NCBI RefSeq assembly: GCF_022846255.1
Contig: NZ_AP025682.1
Direction: 5' to 3' (one strand)
DNA length: 64,000 nt
From: Escherichia coli
GTDB taxonomy: Bacteria; Pseudomonadota; Gammaproteobacteria; Enterobacterales; Enterobacteriaceae
Shown: piece by piece, positions 1 to 48,662 of the stretch
How positions within the stretch are numbered: the stretch's first letter is position 1
Layout of the letters: the number at the start of each line of letters is the position of its first letter
Program-made: the position numbers and the translations under genes
Notes under the pieces: generated by a model
Databases searched by the model: none
Seen by the model: only the letters and a program-made list of their open reading frames with translations
What the model was told of the DNA's origin: nothing

Positions 1-1
1 G

Positions 2-877
2 AAATATATCGCTCTCGATCTCTCGCTACCACTGGGCAACTGGTTTAGCGCAGGGATGACCCATCAAAACGGCTACACCATGGCAAACCTGTCAGCACGC
101 AAACAGTTTGATGAAGGAACCATTCGCACTGTTGGTGCCAATCTGTCACGAGCCATCTCCGGCGATACCGGTGATGACAAAACCCTCAGCGGTGGGGCGT
201 ATGCACAGTTCGACGCTCGTTACGCCAGCGGAACGCTGAACGTCAATAGCGCGGCGGACGGCTACATCAATACCAATTTGACCGCCAACGGCAGCGTCGG
301 CTGGCAGGGTAAAAACATCGCTGCCAGCGGGCGGACCGATGGCAACGCTGGGGTGATATTCGACACTGGCCTGGAGAACGATGGTCAGATCAGCGCCAAA
401 ATCAACGGGCGGATTTTCCCGCTTAACGGCAAGCGTAACTATCTCCCGCTCTCTCCCTATGGAAGATATGAGGTGGAGTTGCAGAACAGCAAAAACTCAC
501 TCGACAGTTACGATATCGTCAGCGGTCGCAAAAGTCATCTGACTCTCTATCCAGGCAATGTCGCTGTCATTGAGCCAGAGGTGAAGCAGATGGTTACCGT
601 CTCCGGTCGTATCCGTGCGGAAGACGGCACACTGCTGGCTAACGCACGGATTAACAACCATATCGGCCGAACCCGAACCGATGAAAACGGCGAGTTTGTC
701 ATGGACGTGGATAAGAAATACCCCACTATCGATTTTCGCTACAGTGGCAATAAAACCTGCGAAGTGGCACTGGAACTCAACCAGGCGCGCGGTGCCGTCT
801 GGGTCGGTGATGTGGTCTGCAGCGGCCTCTCATCGTGGGCGGCGGTGACGCAGACAGGAGAAGAGAATGAGAGTTAA
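2..877 (+). CDS. ecpC: Fimbrial usher EcpC (MatD/YagX), C-terminal part; start lies upstream of the window
   Basis: Frame is open from window start to stop at 877; followed directly by ecpD and ecpE in the conserved ecp order; sequence recognised as the usher C-terminus. Confidence 0.8.
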
Positions 878-2510
878 CCTACTGATAGCGATGATAATCT
901 TTGCGCTAATCTGGCCTGCAACCGCGCTCAGAGCGGCAGTGAGCAAAACAACCTGGGCGGATGCTCCGGCACGCGAGTTTGTGTTTGTCGAAAACAACTC
1001 AGACGACAACTTTTTCGTCACTCCTGGCGGGGCGCTGGATCCGCGCCTGACCGGTGCCAACCGCTGGACCGGTTTAAAATACAATGGTTCAGGAACCATC
1101 TATCAGCAAAGCCTCGGCTACATTGATAACGGTTACAACACCGGCCTTTATACCAACTGGAAGTTTGATATGTGGCTGGAAAATTCACCAGTTTCATCTC
1201 CTTTAACTGGCTTGCGCTGCATCAACTGGTACGCAGGGTGTAATATGACCACCAGTCTTATCCTGCCGCAAACCACCGACGCCAGTGGATTTTATGGCGC
1301 GACGGTGACCAGCGGCGGCGCGAAATGGATGCACGGCATGTTGTCAGACGCGTTTTACCAGTATCTGCAACAAATGCCCGTCGGCAGCAGCTTTACAATG
1401 ACCATCAATGCCTGCCAGACCTCTGTGAACTATGACGCCAGCAGCGGCGCACGCTGTAAGGATCAGGCCTCCGGCAACTGGTATGTTCGCAACGTCACCC
1501 ATACGAAAGCAGCAAATCTGCGGTTGATAAATACCCACTCGCTGGCGGAAGTATTTATCAACAGCGACGGAGTTCCGACTCTGGGCGAAGGGAACGCCGA
1601 CTGCCGGACGCAAACCATCGGCAGTCGTTCAGGATTAAGTTGTAAGATGGTTAACTATACCCTGCAAACAAACGGACTCAGCAACACCTCAATCCATATA
1701 TTCCCGGCGATCGCCAACTCGTCGTTAGCCTCGGCCGTCGGGGCGTACGATATGCAGTTCAGTCTGAATGGCAGTTCATGGAAACCGGTGAGCAATACTG
1801 CCTATTACTACACCTTCAACGAGATGAAGAGCGCAGACTCGATCTATGTTTTCTTCTCGAGCAACTTCTTTAAACAGATGGTGAACCTCGGGATCAGCGA
1901 TATCAACACCAAAGATCTATTCAACTTTCGCTTTCAGAACACCACATCACCGGAGTCTGGCTGGTATGAATTTTCTACCTCCAACACGCTGATTATCAAA
2001 CCCCGTGATTTCAGCATCAGTATTATCTCCGATGAATATACTCAGACACCGTCGCGGGAGGGATATGTCGGCAGCGGCGAGTCGGCACTCGATTTCGGCT
2101 ATATCGTAACCACCAGCGGTAAAACAGCTGCCGACGAAGTGCTGATCAAGGTGACCGGACCCGCGCAGGTGATTGGCGGGCGCTCCTATTGTGTCTTCAG
2201 CTCCGATGACGGTAAGGCTAAAGTACCGTTCCCGGCGACGCTTTCCTTTATTACCCGCAACGGAGCTACAAAAACCTACGATGCCGGGTGCGATGATAGC
2301 TGGCGGGATATGACCGATGCGCTGTGGTTGACCACACCGTGGACTGATATCTCTGGCGAAGTGGGGCAGATGGATAAGACCACAGTCAAATTTTCGATTC
2401 CAATGGATAACGCCATTTCTCTGCGTACGGTAGATGATAACGGCTGGTTTGGCGAAGTCAGCGCTTCAGGAGAGATTCATGTTCAGGCGACGTGGCGTAA
2501 CATTAACTAA
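867..2510 (+). CDS. ecpD: E. coli common pilus tip adhesin EcpD (YagW), 547 aa
   Basis: Full-length ORF with signal-peptide-like N-terminus ([20 protein letters not shown]); length and sequence match EcpD as I recall it. Confidence 0.9.
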
Positions 2511-3189
2511 GGCCCTGCTGACAGTGGTCTGTATGCTGGCGGCACCTTTGACACAGGCGATTTCGGTCGGCAATCTGACTTTTTCACTGCCGTCCGAGAC
2601 TGACTTTGTCAGCAAACGTGTCGTGAATAACAACAAAAGCGCGCGGATATACCGTATTGCCATCAGTGCTATTGATAGCCCGGGCAGCAGTGAATTGCGC
2701 ACCCGACCGGTGGATGGTGAACTACTTTTCGCCCCCCGCCAGCTGGCGTTGCAGGCTGGTGAGAGCGAGTATTTTAAATTTTACTATCATGGTCCACGGG
2801 ATAACCGCGAGCGCTACTACCGGGTCTCATTTCGCGAGGTCCCCACTCGTAACCTGACAAAACGCAGCCCAACCGGCGGTGAGGTCAGCACGGAGCCGGT
2901 GGTGGTGATGGATACCATTCTGGTAGTACGACCACGTCAGGTTCAGTTTAAATGGTCCTTCGATCAGGTGACCGGAACGGTAAGTAACACCGGCAACACG
3001 TGGTTTAAGCTACTGATTAAACCAGGATGTGATTCGACCGAAGAGGAAGGCGATGCCTGGTATCTACGTCCGGGAGACGTGGTTCATCAGCCTGAGTTAC
3101 GTCAGCCGGGGAATCATTATCTGGTCTATAACGACAAATTCATTAAGATTAGCGATTCCTGTCCGGCTAAGCCCCCTTCGGCGGACTAA
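2479..3189 (+). CDS. ecpE: Fimbrial chaperone EcpE (YagV), about 236 aa
   Basis: Start chosen at [14 protein letters not shown] (ORF track begins 15 codons earlier); overlaps ecpD end by 32 nt. Confidence 0.85.
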
Positions 3190-3501
3190 GACTTATCCAT
3201 CAGACGAGGGAAGAATTCCACCTCAGAGACTCAAAAATCGTTTAAATGATGTGGAAGCGATCGTCAATGTCACCTGTAACGATGAGCTTTCTCATATGCA
3301 CACCACAGTGTTCAGGAGACACGGAAAGGTACCAGGCGGCCTGCTAACGAGTGGTTTCTTCACTAATTAGGACGTAAAATCGGTAACGGCTGGAAATCAT
3401 TCAATACTCACACTATCGAAAGTACACCAGCCAACCGAGATACGTCCCTGCATACGACGTACCGCAGTTATCTTTACGATTTATAGCTGTACTGGTGAAT
3501 T

Positions 3502-3831
3502 ATGAGCAATCTGAATCCATGCATGACGTGTGGTGCCTGTTGTGCATTTTTCCGCGTCTCTTTTTACTGGGCCGAAGCCGACGATGCTGGCGGTACCATT
3601 CCCGCCAGGCTCACTGAACAAATATCCCCTTTTCACCGATGCATGAGCGGTACTAATCAGAAAAATCCCCGATGTATTGCCCTTGCAGGAACACCGGGCA
3701 AAAATGCCTGCTGCACGATATATGAAAATCGATCGTCCACATGCAGAGAATTCGCCATGTCTGGTGAGAACGGAGAAGTCAATGAGGCTTGCAATCGTGC
3801 AAGAGCTAAATACGGGCTAACACCGTTATAA
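3502..3831 (+). CDS. ykgJ: YkgJ, small Cys-rich protein (UPF0153, putative metal-binding), 109 aa
   Basis: Cys-rich motifs ([22 protein letters not shown]); K-12 neighbour of yagU and ecpE. Confidence 0.8.
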
Positions 3832-4079
3832 ATATACAATAATTAATTGCATTGCCCCGCCAGCTGTAATAGCGGGGCTTCGTTTTTCAGGGACAACAAA
3901 ACCTGAAACTTCTTCCATTTTCCAGCAACAATGCCTCTTCTTCTGTAGCGTTCTCCGGATCTACATCATCCTGAAGTAGCGCGATATGATCACTGACTGT
4001 CCGCATCAGAATATGAAAAGCAACGTTTTTAACCTATAAAAATGGCGCTATATTTGCGCCATTTTTATCATTCAAAGCA

Positions 4080-4694
4080 TTATCTATTTGAGCCTAAAGG
4101 GATCTCAGGATCTGGCTCATGGGTAATTCTGTTTCGTAAATCTCTGCGAATAATTTCAATAGACCAGAACCAGACTAAATGTCCAAAAATTTCAGAGACA
4201 TTCTCATACCACGGAAGCTCAAAGAGAGGTGGCGTAAGTCCCATGAGAGGGAATGAAATCATATGAACAAAAAGTTGCGCTAAAGCACCTGCCAGTAAGC
4301 CCTGCCAAAGTTTAATTTTCGGAAATACTTCGGCGACCACACAGTAACCAACGGCAAAAACTATCGAAAAGATTATGTGCGTTACACCAACCCAGTTAAA
4401 GACATGCCCGGCGAAGGTATAAACAGCCGAATTTGGATCTGTCAGTCCCAACCAATCCCGAAGAAAAATGTACGGAGGATTGAGAAAGTTACGGGAGCAA
4501 TCAATTTGGCCTGCAGCCCTGATTAATGATTCCGGACCACACGCTGCATTAAACATATCAACCGGACTACGTGGTGGCAATGGAACTTCTGCCCCCCACT
4601 TAACAAATGCGGAAACAACGCCAGCAATCAGCCCAATGAATGCAGCAAGACCATAACGTCTGCGGTTTGGTGGAGTTTGTTCAAATATATTCAT
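4080..4694 (-). CDS. yagU: Inner-membrane protein YagU (DUF1440), 204 aa
   Basis: Full-length ORF with hydrophobic segments; sequence recognised as YagU. Confidence 0.85.
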
Positions 4695-5082
4695 ATCTAC
4701 CCTGCTTGTACCATTATGTTATACACCTCTTTAGGAGTATTCATAAAACAAGGCAAATGTAAAGAACTGTATTGTTTTGTATAACCACATGGTTACCTAA
4801 TCGCCAATTAATATAAGCTCCATTATTTCTCCATATTTTTATGTTAGAAGTGACAAGGAGAAATGTAATGTTTCTCTCAGAGAATATAAATCATTCCTTT
4901 TGCCCACCTTAATGGTGGGCTTTTTTATGCAAAACCTGAACGTCCTGTGGTATTCCTCTGGCATAATGATTTTCGCGATTAACCAACAACCAGACCAGCA
5001 AAGACGCCACCACAAGCACAGCAACATCCATCAGGCTTGCCACACCCCATGCGTGCGGCTCAAAGCCGCCATGGCATATTAA

Positions 5083-5229
5083 TCCGCTTGCCATTTTCGA
5101 ACAGCTGATTGGTTTAGTCCGGTGTTTCCCTGCTTGCACTTAAAAATGAGCGGATGGGAAACTCTCGAAATGGTTCGTCGATATGCTCACCTCGCACCTA
5201 ATCACCTTACCGAACACGCACGGTAAATA
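5083..5229 (+). pseudogene. 3' remnant of a tyrosine-recombinase (phage-type integrase) gene, about 48 codons, no start
   Basis: Translates to ...[27 protein letters not shown], the typical integrase C-terminus with the RYAHL catalytic-Tyr region; bounded upstream by an in-frame stop; ends 85 bp from the thrW 3' end. Confidence 0.5.
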
Positions 5230-5314
5230 GATTCGATCCTGAACCCATCGGTCCCAAATCTGTCCCAATAAAAAATAAGGAAGGTATTAGTGATGTGTAA
5301 CTTATTGATTTAAA

Positions 5315-5390
5315 TGGTGCCGATAAGAGGAGTCGAACCTCCGACCTTCGCATTACGAATGCGCTGCTCTACCAACTGAGCTATATCGGC
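5315..5390 (-). tRNA. thrW: tRNA-Thr (anticodon CGU)
   Basis: Reverse complement reads GCCGATATAGCTCAGTTGGTAGAGCAGCGCATTCGTAATGCGAAGGTCGGAGGTTCGACTCCTCTTATCGGCACCA: cloverleaf-compatible, CGT anticodon, 3' CCA; sits next to proA as thrW does in K-12. Confidence 0.95.
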
Positions 5391-5504
5391 CCTGAAAGGA
5401 CATGTTCACGAACGTGAATCACGGTGGACAAGGTTAAAACTAACCGGGCGATGCGTCAATGGCCTTGTGAATCAAATGGCTACTTTTGCATCACCCGGTT
5501 TTAT

Positions 5505-6758
5505 TTACGCACGAATGGTGTAATCACCAATGCCGATCCACTTGTAAGTGGTCAGTGCTTCCAGCCCCATTGGGCCACGCGCGTGGAGTTTTTGTGTGCT
5601 TACCGCCACTTCCGCACCCAGTCCAAACTGGCCGCCGTCGGTAAACCGCGTAGAGGCGTTAACGTAAACAGCGGACGAATCCACTTCGTTAACAAAACGC
5701 TGGGCGTTGCGCATATCGCGGGTCAGGATCGCATCGGAGTGTTGTGTGCCGTGTTCACGAATATGGGCGATGGCATCGTCAAGATCGCTGACGATTTTGA
5801 CGTTCAAATCTAATGACAGAAACTCATCGTCATACTCTTCCGCTTTAACAGCCACCACCTTCGCGGGGCCTGTCTGCAACTGCGCCAGCGCAGCTGCATC
5901 TGCGTGTAATGTCACGCCGCTTTCCGCCATTTGTTTGCTTAATGCGGGCAGGAAGCTATCGGCGATGTTTTTATTTACCAGCAACGTTTCTACCGTATTA
6001 CATGTGCTCGGACGCTGAGTTTTCGCGTTGACAATTACTTTCAGGGCTTCAGCGATCTCTGCACTTTCATCAACGTAAATATGGCATACGCCTATACCGC
6101 CTGTGATCACCGGGATTGTCGACTGTTCGCGGCACAGCTTATGCAGCCCAGCGCCACCACGCGGGATCAGCATGTCGATGTATTTATCCATACGCAGCAT
6201 TTCACTGACCAGCGCGCGGTCAGGATTATCAATCGCCTGCACGGCACCCGCCGGTAAGCCACAGGATTTCAGGGCGTCCTGAATCACCGCCACCGTTGCA
6301 GCGTTAGTGCGACAGGTTTCTTTGCCGCCGCGCAGGATCACCGCGTTACCCGTTTTCAGGCACAGCGAAGCGACATCAACCGTCACGTTCGGGCGAGCTT
6401 CATAAATCACGCCAATCACCCCCAGCGGCACGCGACGGCGCTCCAGACGCAGACCACTGTCCAGTACGCCGCCATCGATTACCTGCCCCACCGGATCGGC
6501 GAGATTGCACACCTGGCGCACATCGTCGGCAATGCCTTTCAGCCGTGCGGGCGTCAGTGCCAGACGGTCAAGCATCGCTTCGCTAAGGCCATTGGCACGC
6601 GCGTCTGCAACATCCTGCGCGTTAGCGTTGAGGATACTTTCGCTTTGTGCTTCCAGTTCATCGGCGATTTTTTCCAGCACACGATTTTTTTCGCGGCTGG
6701 AGAGTTGCGCTAATTTATACGAGGCTTGCTTCGCGGCAATGCCCATTTGTTCCAGCAT
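5505..6758 (-). CDS. proA: Gamma-glutamyl phosphate reductase, 417 aa
   Basis: Full-length match to ProA ([38 protein letters not shown]...). Confidence 0.97.
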
Positions 6759-6769
6759 CGGCCAGCTCC

Positions 6770-7873
6770 TTAACGGGTAATCATGTCATCACGGTGAACG
6801 GCAACCGGGCCGTATTCATATCCCAGTATTGCATCAATTTCTTGCGAGTGGTGTCCGGCAATACGGCGTAATGCATCGCTGTTGTAACGACTGACGCCGT
6901 GGGCGATATCGCGACCTTCGAGGTTGCAAATACGGATGACTTCACCACGCGAGAAATTGCCAGTCACGCTTTTAATGCCTTTCGGCAACAGGGAGCTGCC
7001 GCGTTCAAGAATGGCGGCAGTTGCCCCTTCATCTACCGTGATTTCACCCGCTGGCGGCGCACCGAAAATCCAGCGTTTACGGTTTTCAAGCGGAGTTGCC
7101 TGGGCATGGAACAGCGTACCCACGGAAATGCCTTCCATCACATCACCAATAACGCCCGGCTTGCTGCCCGCGGCAATAATGGTGTCGATACCCGCACGGC
7201 AAGCCACGTCCGCGGCCTGCAATTTGGTACTCATGCCGCCAGTTCCGAGGCCTGAAACGCTATCACCGGCAATCGCGCGCAGTGCGTCATCAATGCCGTA
7301 CACATCTTTAATCAGTTCTGCCTGCGGATTGCTGCGCGGGTCAGCGGTATACAAACCTTTTTGATCGGTCAGCAGCAACAGTTTATCGGCACCCGCCAGA
7401 ATCGCCGCCAGCGCAGAAAGGTTATCGTTATCACCGACCTTAATCTCTGCCGTAGCGACAGCATCGTTCTCATTAATTACCGGAACGATATTGTTATCGA
7501 GCAACGCACGCAGGGTATCGCGGGCGTTCAGGAAGCGTTCACGATCTTCCATATCAGCACGGGTCAGCAACATCTGCCCGACATGAATGCCGTAAATTGA
7601 AAACAGCTGTTCCCACAGTTGAATCAGTCGACTCTGCCCTACCGCCGCCAGCAATTGTTTCGAGGCGATAGTCGCAGGTAGTTCCGGGTAACCCAGGTGC
7701 TCACGTCCGGCGGCAATCGCGCCCGACGTCACAATAACAATCCGATGCCCGGCGGCATGTAACTGCGCGCACTGGCGAACGAGTTCAACAATATGGGCAC
7801 GGTTCAGGCGGCGCGATCCGCCTGTTAGCACACTGGTGCCGAGTTTTACCACCAGCGTCTGGCTGTCACTCAT
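6770..7873 (-). CDS. proB: Glutamate 5-kinase, 367 aa
   Basis: Start set at [16 protein letters not shown] (ORF track extends 29 codons upstream); immediately upstream of proA. Confidence 0.95.
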
Positions 7874-48456: not shown

Positions 48457-48584
48457 AGGGTGAACGATATAAGTAGCGACATTAATCAGGATGTTCTGAA
48501 GCGTATCACCGGTGGGATTAACAAGTTCGAATTAAACGATAATAAAAATATTATTTGTTTATAAACAATGAGTTATAACCGCAG

Positions 48585-48662
48585 GCCGGATAAAGCGTTT
48601 ACGCCGCATCCGGCAATCGTGCACCGGTGCCTGATGCGACGCTGCGCGTCTTATCAGGCCTA
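48585..48662. repeat. Pair of REP elements in the lafK-lfiM divergent intergenic region
   Basis: GCCGGATAAAGCGTTTACGCCGCATCCGGC and GCCTGATGCGACGCTGCGCGTCTTATCAGGCCTAC. Confidence 0.6.

Follow-up and report, generated by a model that had tools for sequence, protein, structure and literature searches.

More than 80% of co-directional gene overlaps are shorter than 30 bp (PMC12548453), and co-directional overlaps of at least 60 bp have all been judged to be misannotations (PMC2478687). The same work accepted, on the grounds of orthologue conservation, the 32-bp out-of-frame overlap between the co-directional E. coli genes holD and rimI, which is conserved in Enterobacteria (PMC2478687). In translationally coupled overlapping pairs, such as those with the ATGA (-4) and -1 arrangements and the coat-lysis pair of phage fr, the genes are co-directional, their products form a complex and the downstream start precedes the upstream stop (PMC12548453, PMC10666635); in phage fr, coupling proceeds by back-scanning re-initiation at -38 nt (PMC12548453). 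Structural work assigns a dedicated chaperone to the fimbrial adhesin EcpD (PMC4654587). A literature search retrieved no paper on an overlap of ecpD with ecpE, and no start-site, ribosome-profiling or coupling data for ecpE.

The window analysed here is a 64,000-nt stretch of an E. coli genome (contig NZ_AP025682.1), which opens within ecpC, with ecpR, ecpA and ecpB lying outside it. Its ORF list gives the gene order ecpC, ecpD, ecpE, ykgJ and yagU, collinear with the annotated ecpR-A-B-C-D-E-ykgJ-yagU order (including that of K-12), and a 601-nt query taken at the ecpD-ecpE junction is 100% identical to the annotated operon in NZ_CP031215. The locus is the ecpRABCDE (Mat/ECP) operon of the alternative chaperone-usher pathway. 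The ecpC fragment (56..877) matches the CooC_C usher C-terminal domain (1.5e-21), and EcpD scores 1018 bits against the NCBIfam equivalog NF047911 FimbAdhEcpD (cutoff 900), covering 537/538 model positions. The profile search matched no NCBIfam model to EcpE, and its score against Pfam PapD_N (19.6 bits) falls under the gathering score of 23 bits; phmmer aligned its residues 28–202 with the crystal structure of the paralogue EcpB (5DFK, E=4.5e-20), which places EcpE among the PapD-like periplasmic chaperones, and RefSeq names the product 'fimbrial chaperone EcpE'. EcpE homologues are 231–236 aa long, with 236 aa in Klebsiella. For a few longer database entries of 292–297 aa (P0003, P0009 and P0118), the likely causes are a start called too far upstream or a frameshift that fuses ecpE to the 3' end of ecpD.

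The initial annotation described a 32-nt overlap between ecpD and ecpE, with the start of ecpE (MFRRRG) lying inside ecpD in a different frame, and both statements agree with the sequence, the ORF list and the existing annotation (Table 1). ecpD ends with TGG CGT AAC ATT AAC TAA, its stop codon occupying 2508–2510, while the stop codon of ecpE is at 3187–3189; the frame of ecpE is +1 relative to ecpD (867 is 0 mod 3, 2479 is 1 mod 3). The last 11 codons of ecpD (10 residues and the stop) carry the 5' end of ecpE, and the ~10.7 EcpE codons inside the overlap encode the positively charged n-region of the signal peptide. In L001, from a strain without differences in the 601-nt query, RefSeq/PGAP places ecpC at 2153..4678, ecpD at 4668..6311 and ecpE at 6280..6990, and in K-12 MG1655 ecpD (b0290) and ecpE (b0289) are annotated at 305174..306817 and 304495..305205, so that the overlap comprises identical nucleotides in both. 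Over 101 nt of the junction K-12 differs from the window at a single base, 2525 (T here, C in K-12), downstream of the overlap; the starts, the stops and the 32-nt overlap itself are the same, and residue 16 of the EcpE signal peptide is Ala (GCG) in K-12 and Val (GTG 2524) in the window. The overlap is thus already present in the reference E. coli annotation and is mechanistically ordinary, in keeping with its initial description as a minor point.

Table 1. Features of the ecpC-ecpD-ecpE region, in window coordinates, with the energies of the Shine-Dalgarno:anti-Shine-Dalgarno (SD:anti-SD) duplexes for the candidate ecpE starts.
Feature	Position	Strand	SD:anti-SD (kcal/mol)	Basis or remark
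ecpC stop / ecpD start overlap, 11 nt (ATGAGAGTTAA)	867..877	+		sequence and translation; RefSeq
ecpD (yagW), fimbrial tip adhesin, 547 aa	867..2510	+		ORF list, NCBIfam NF047911, RefSeq
alternative ecpE start ATG	2434		-3.0	
alternative ecpE start TTG	2449		-4.1	
ecpE Shine-Dalgarno AGGAGA	2468..2473	+		in ecpD Ser-Gly-Glu codons TCA GGA GAG; 5 nt to ATG
ecpE start ATG	2479..2481	+	-7.4	built from ecpD cAT Gtt (His-Val); RefSeq/K-12 start
out-of-frame ecpD/ecpE overlap, 32 nt	2479..2510	+		EcpE signal-peptide n-region over EcpD C-terminus
ecpE (yagV), PapD-like periplasmic chaperone, 236 aa	2479..3189	+		phmmer to 5DFK, RefSeq
EcpE Sec signal peptide, 27 aa	2479..2559	+		charge/hydrophobicity, 5DFK alignment, conserved mature N-terminus
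alternative ecpE start GTG	2524		-3.6	
alternative ecpE start ATG	2533		-2.2	

Among 5,426 complete E. coli genomes, the 601-nt junction query was matched in 4,952, always under features annotated as ecpD and ecpE, and the region is absent from 474 (about 9%). The 60-mer spanning the junction is exact in 76% of the records from ~4,950 E. coli genomes and an upstream control 60-mer in 32%; these figures depend on the allele of the window and are weakly in agreement with a genuine overlap. The one junction variant that was inspected has its change at 2511, just beyond the stop codon of ecpD. Thirteen of the junction matches sit on plasmid-typed records, and the match of strain PEC422 (H12) falls into two separate places beside a 'hypothetical protein', which suggests that ecpE is disrupted there.

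Three further observations concern other parts of the window. A tRNA-Thr(CGT) gene, presumably thrW, lies at 5315–5390 on the minus strand, ~600 nt past yagU, and is directly followed by an ORF at 5505–6758 (minus strand), which we take to be proA. In K-12 the thrW site is occupied by the CP4-6 prophage, and in NZ_CP031215, the record with the 100% ecp match, yagU is followed by an integrase fragment, IS1 and vat; the thrW island site of the window (region 4695–5505) is thus empty or different. Two Rfam families were also recognized, IS009 (RF02111) in the ykgJ-yagU intergenic region at 3874–4074 on the minus strand (197 bits, gathering score 117) and the nucleoid-associated noncoding RNA naRNA4/CssrE (RF02564) at 48584–48660 on the plus strand (79 bits, gathering score 59.5).

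Since the mechanically derived ORF list has the ecpE frame open as far back as ATG 2434, the length of the overlap depends on the choice of the start codon, a caveat already raised in the initial annotation. The ribosome-binding site, the signal peptide and the orthologues settle this choice for ATG 2479. The core AGGAG (2468–2472) lies 6 nt before this codon, and its duplex with the 3' end of 16S rRNA is, together with that of ecpD, the strongest in the operon. The 27-residue pre-sequence that begins here, assessed by rules and homology rather than by a trained predictor, has the features of a cleavable Sec-type signal peptide: an n-region of 11 residues with a net charge of +4, an h-region of 13 residues (highest Kyte-Doolittle average over 10 residues, 2.71) and the c-region TQA, with cleavage between TQA and I releasing the mature N-terminus ISVGNL. 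The homology evidence concurs: the EcpB chain in 5DFK aligns from residue I28 of EcpE, the signal of EcpB ends with PAQA followed by LDVGD, and the mature N-terminus ISVG(N/D)LTF is kept in EcpE orthologues.

The orthologue scan, with one genome per species, yielded 21 loci (52–89% protein identity) from Klebsiella, Raoultella, Enterobacter, Phytobacter, Pantoea, Pluralibacter, Phaseolibacter and a divergent Escherichia. The same ATG, Shine-Dalgarno sequence and 32-nt overlap are found in 18 of them, from all of these genera except Phaseolibacter; the ecpD stop codon ends 31 nt after the ATG position and the Shine-Dalgarno duplex ranges from -7.4 to -8.0 kcal/mol. Eleven of the 18 loci have an in-frame TGA or TAA at -21, which renders the upstream ATG and TTG unusable, and in three loci (L006, L011 and L019) the ATG is the sole start candidate upstream of the h-region. 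The other three of the 21, from Enterobacter sp. 10-1 (L016, 3989–4030), Raoultella terrigena (L017, 3986–4027) and Phaseolibacter flectens (L021, 3899–3960), have lost not only the ATG but also the Shine-Dalgarno sequence, GGA being replaced by GGT or GGC. They possess an ATG at +21, formed from ecpD AAT G.., with a weak Shine-Dalgarno sequence and an 11-nt overlap, as well as a rival upstream GTG at -9 or ATG at -18 with a better Shine-Dalgarno sequence and an overlap of 41 or 50 nt; all of these candidate replacements lie within ecpD. One further locus (L022) carries the ATG both at 0 and at +21 and could be an intermediate state, and the 11-nt form is a candidate junction in these four loci. 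Whatever its length, an overlap of the ecpE start with ecpD is present in 21/21 loci, and the pair thus combines an orthologue-like length of the downstream gene with an overlap that recurs across genera. An out-of-frame ATG near the end of a gene is in itself a trivial product of chance; a strong Shine-Dalgarno sequence at the correct spacing, a signal peptide that only this start provides in normal form, and cross-genus conservation at synonymous sites of ecpD take the arrangement beyond chance. We consider it highly probable that the co-directional ecpD-ecpE overlap is genuine and evolutionarily maintained, and that ecpE starts at AUG 2479.

Several of the orthologous loci exhibit peculiarities of their own. 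Klebsiella spallanzanii (NZ_CABGGS010000045.1, 283955–300170) has two ecpE homologues (L006 and L022) with 72–74% identity to E. coli, located ~7.5 kb from each other in the same orientation, an arrangement suggestive of two ecp-like operons in tandem, and Phytobacter massiliensis has two copies of ecpE on different contigs (L009 and L019). Upstream of position 4001 in the locus of Pluralibacter gergoviae (L020), the ORF in the ecpD frame is open for only 358 codons vs 540–637 in the other loci. The adhesin gene may be frameshifted or truncated here, or may have a different N-terminal region.

The initial annotation also proposed a ribosome-binding site internal to the 3' end of ecpD, and the codon usage of ecpD argues for it. 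The analysis comprised the 19 sequences with the ATG, whose loci are phylogenetically related, so that the counts are not independent events; against a background in which one codon is used throughout at only 4.8% of the conserved degenerate residues of ecpD, the codons that contain the Shine-Dalgarno sequence, the spacer and the ATG are TCA (95%), GGA (100%), GAR, ATT (100%) and CAT (100%), encoding Ser-Gly-Glu-Ile-His. This is the most synonymously constrained five-codon stretch of ecpD and the sole one among 71 five-codon windows in which at least four codons are essentially fixed. The glycine codon of the Shine-Dalgarno sequence is GGA in 19/19 of these sequences, whereas ecpD usually employs GGC or GGT and GGA is elsewhere its rarest majority glycine codon (2/40 columns). 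The histidine codon at the ATG is CAT in 18/18 cases and never CAC; in L022 the histidine is replaced by tyrosine, encoded by TAT, and the ATG is still intact. Selection for the start signals of ecpE is thus evident at synonymous sites of ecpD, and the predicted ribosome-binding site and start codon within the 3' end of ecpD are well supported by the comparison of sequences.

Within the 32-nt overlap the second codon positions of ecpE coincide with the third positions of ecpD, where synonymous variability remains at the background level. The substitutions observed are mostly synonymous in ecpD (GTT/GTC, ACG/ACA, CGT/CGC and AAC/AAT) and the same substitutions alter EcpE (F2S/L, R5H/Y, V7A and T8I), so the conserved C-terminus of EcpD dominates and the tolerant n-region absorbs the changes. 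The n-region requires hardly more than a positive charge and therefore tolerates the constraint imposed by ecpD, which makes the overlap cheap. The conservation of RRRG in EcpE was rejected as proof that the overlap is translated, since the argument is circular: the conserved EcpD motif QATW, read in the other frame, forces RRRG.

Two alternative choices of the start codon have to be weighed against ATG 2479. When a long co-directional overlap is annotated, the downstream gene has often been extended too far at its 5' end by mistake (PMC2478687), and GTG 2524 and ATG 2533 are both in frame in the window, so ecpE might begin beyond the ecpD stop with no overlap at all. The paper on misannotation, however, concerns overlaps of at least 60 bp and accepts a conserved one of 32 bp (PMC2478687), and the two codons themselves are poor candidates: both have weak Shine-Dalgarno sequences (Table 1), GTG 2524 is GCG in K-12, and neither codon is conserved in the orthologues, of which L003 has no alternative start in this region at all. 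EcpE is periplasmic and therefore needs a signal peptide, while the pre-sequences left by these starts, 12 or 9 residues long, would lack a charged n-region and be incompatible with export, and we regard a start beyond ecpD as very improbable. A start farther upstream, at ATG 2434 or TTG 2449, would extend the overlap to 77 or 62 nt and lengthen the pre-sequence; such a reading is permitted by the frame open from 2434 in the window and is mirrored in the few database proteins of 292–297 aa. The Shine-Dalgarno sequences of these codons are, however, weak (Table 1) and poorly spaced, the pre-sequence would have an atypical length of 37–42 aa, neither RefSeq nor K-12 uses these codons, and the stop codon at -21 makes the extension untranslatable in 11 orthologous loci. 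Taken together, these points render an upstream start extremely improbable.

With the start at AUG 2479, ecpD and ecpE have the layout of a coupled pair, i.e. they are co-directional, belong to one transcription unit and the ecpE start precedes the ecpD stop. The scans revealed no convincing terminator between the two genes and no plus-strand promoter-like site in 1..4200, and on the latter ground a promoter of ecpE internal to ecpD was rejected. Masking of the ecpE ribosome-binding site by RNA structure was likewise considered and rejected: the single-sequence fold has a minimum free energy no better than that of shuffled sequences (z=+0.88), and the alignment fold of 15 orthologues gave a weak consensus hairpin with no compensatory changes. 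Without an occluding structure, a coupling route based on RNA unfolding is unsupported, and the exposed Shine-Dalgarno sequence could act independently of ecpD translation. Ribosomes can probably bind de novo to the strong, exposed Shine-Dalgarno sequence at 2468–2472 and initiate at AUG 2479; a further contribution could come from ribosomes that finish ecpD at UAA 2508–2510, scan back over the short distance of 29 nt to the AUG and initiate again. By either route, adhesin and chaperone would be made in roughly matched amounts. Translational coupling, the other option named in the initial annotation, would tie the synthesis of EcpE to that of EcpD. It is plausible, as EcpE is the chaperone dedicated to this adhesin, and we put the prospect of measurable coupling, given that the start and the overlap are real, at about even or slightly better.

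Initiation of ecpE might also be independent only, with the overlap a by-product of gene packing and free 30S subunits using the ecpE Shine-Dalgarno sequence with no dependence on ecpD, or even with interference from the ribosomes that translate ecpD. The strength and good spacing of that sequence, the lack of inhibitory structure that would require unfolding and the non-overlapping ecpA-ecpB and ecpB-ecpC junctions, which indicate that the operon can do without overlaps in places, are all consistent with this reading. On the other hand, the ecpE start remains inside ecpD in 21/21 loci, even where it has moved, which suggests that the short distance between start and stop is itself maintained; the relation between client and chaperone favours matched output (PMC4654587), and coupling has been documented at a similar negative spacing (PMC12548453). 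Purely independent initiation is in our opinion a serious possibility, if one somewhat short of even chances. A bolder interpretation, which we regard as rather doubtful, is that the overlap itself rather than a given start codon is the selected feature, with EcpE produced mainly by re-initiating ribosomes at a ratio to EcpD near 1:1. Under this interpretation the ribosomes would back-scan by about 29 nt, or by 8 nt in the 11-nt variants, the loci of Enterobacter sp. 10-1, R. terrigena and P. flectens would constitute natural experiments, and the RRRG of EcpE would have arisen by overprinting, as the alternative-frame reading of the conserved EcpD motif QATW.

The practical consequence of these results is the confirmation of the reference ecpE start, with little import beyond confidence in the annotation. 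N-terminal sequencing of mature EcpE, a check suggested in the initial annotation, cannot identify the start: the mature N-terminus is uninformative because the 27-residue signal peptide is cleaved off. The arrangement does matter for the design of constructs, as the ribosome-binding site and the start of ecpE are lost when the last ~45 nt of ecpD are deleted or recoded, and a C-terminal tag on EcpD disrupts ecpE. More generally, the junction is a clean and well-conserved case of a co-directional overlap of ~30 nt, in which the n-region of a signal peptide overprints a conserved C-terminus. The predicted coupling, if true, would add one more case of matched chaperone-client synthesis and no new principle.

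Compared with the described systems, the ecpD-ecpE overlap lies in the upper but known part of the size range and passes the test of orthologue conservation. It resembles the overlap of holD and rimI, with which it shares the length of 32 bp, the co-directional, out-of-frame arrangement and the conservation; the genes are, however, unrelated to those studied here, and in ecpE the overprinted part is the n-region of a signal peptide that is later cleaved, so dual coding is unusually cheap. With the coupled pairs ecpD-ecpE has in common the orientation, the complex formed by the products and the order of start and stop, and its spacing of -32 is within the range of the back-scanning re-initiation known from phage fr (PMC12548453). 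It differs from the dominant -4 and -1 pairs in that its overlap is much longer and ecpE has a strong Shine-Dalgarno sequence of its own, and in that its coupling is only inferred. A further parallel is found in the operon itself: the ecpC-ecpD junction exhibits the same relative frame (3n+2), the same CAGGAGA Shine-Dalgarno sequence and the same duplex of -7.4 kcal/mol as ecpE, but with an overlap of 11 nt vs 32 nt for ecpD-ecpE.
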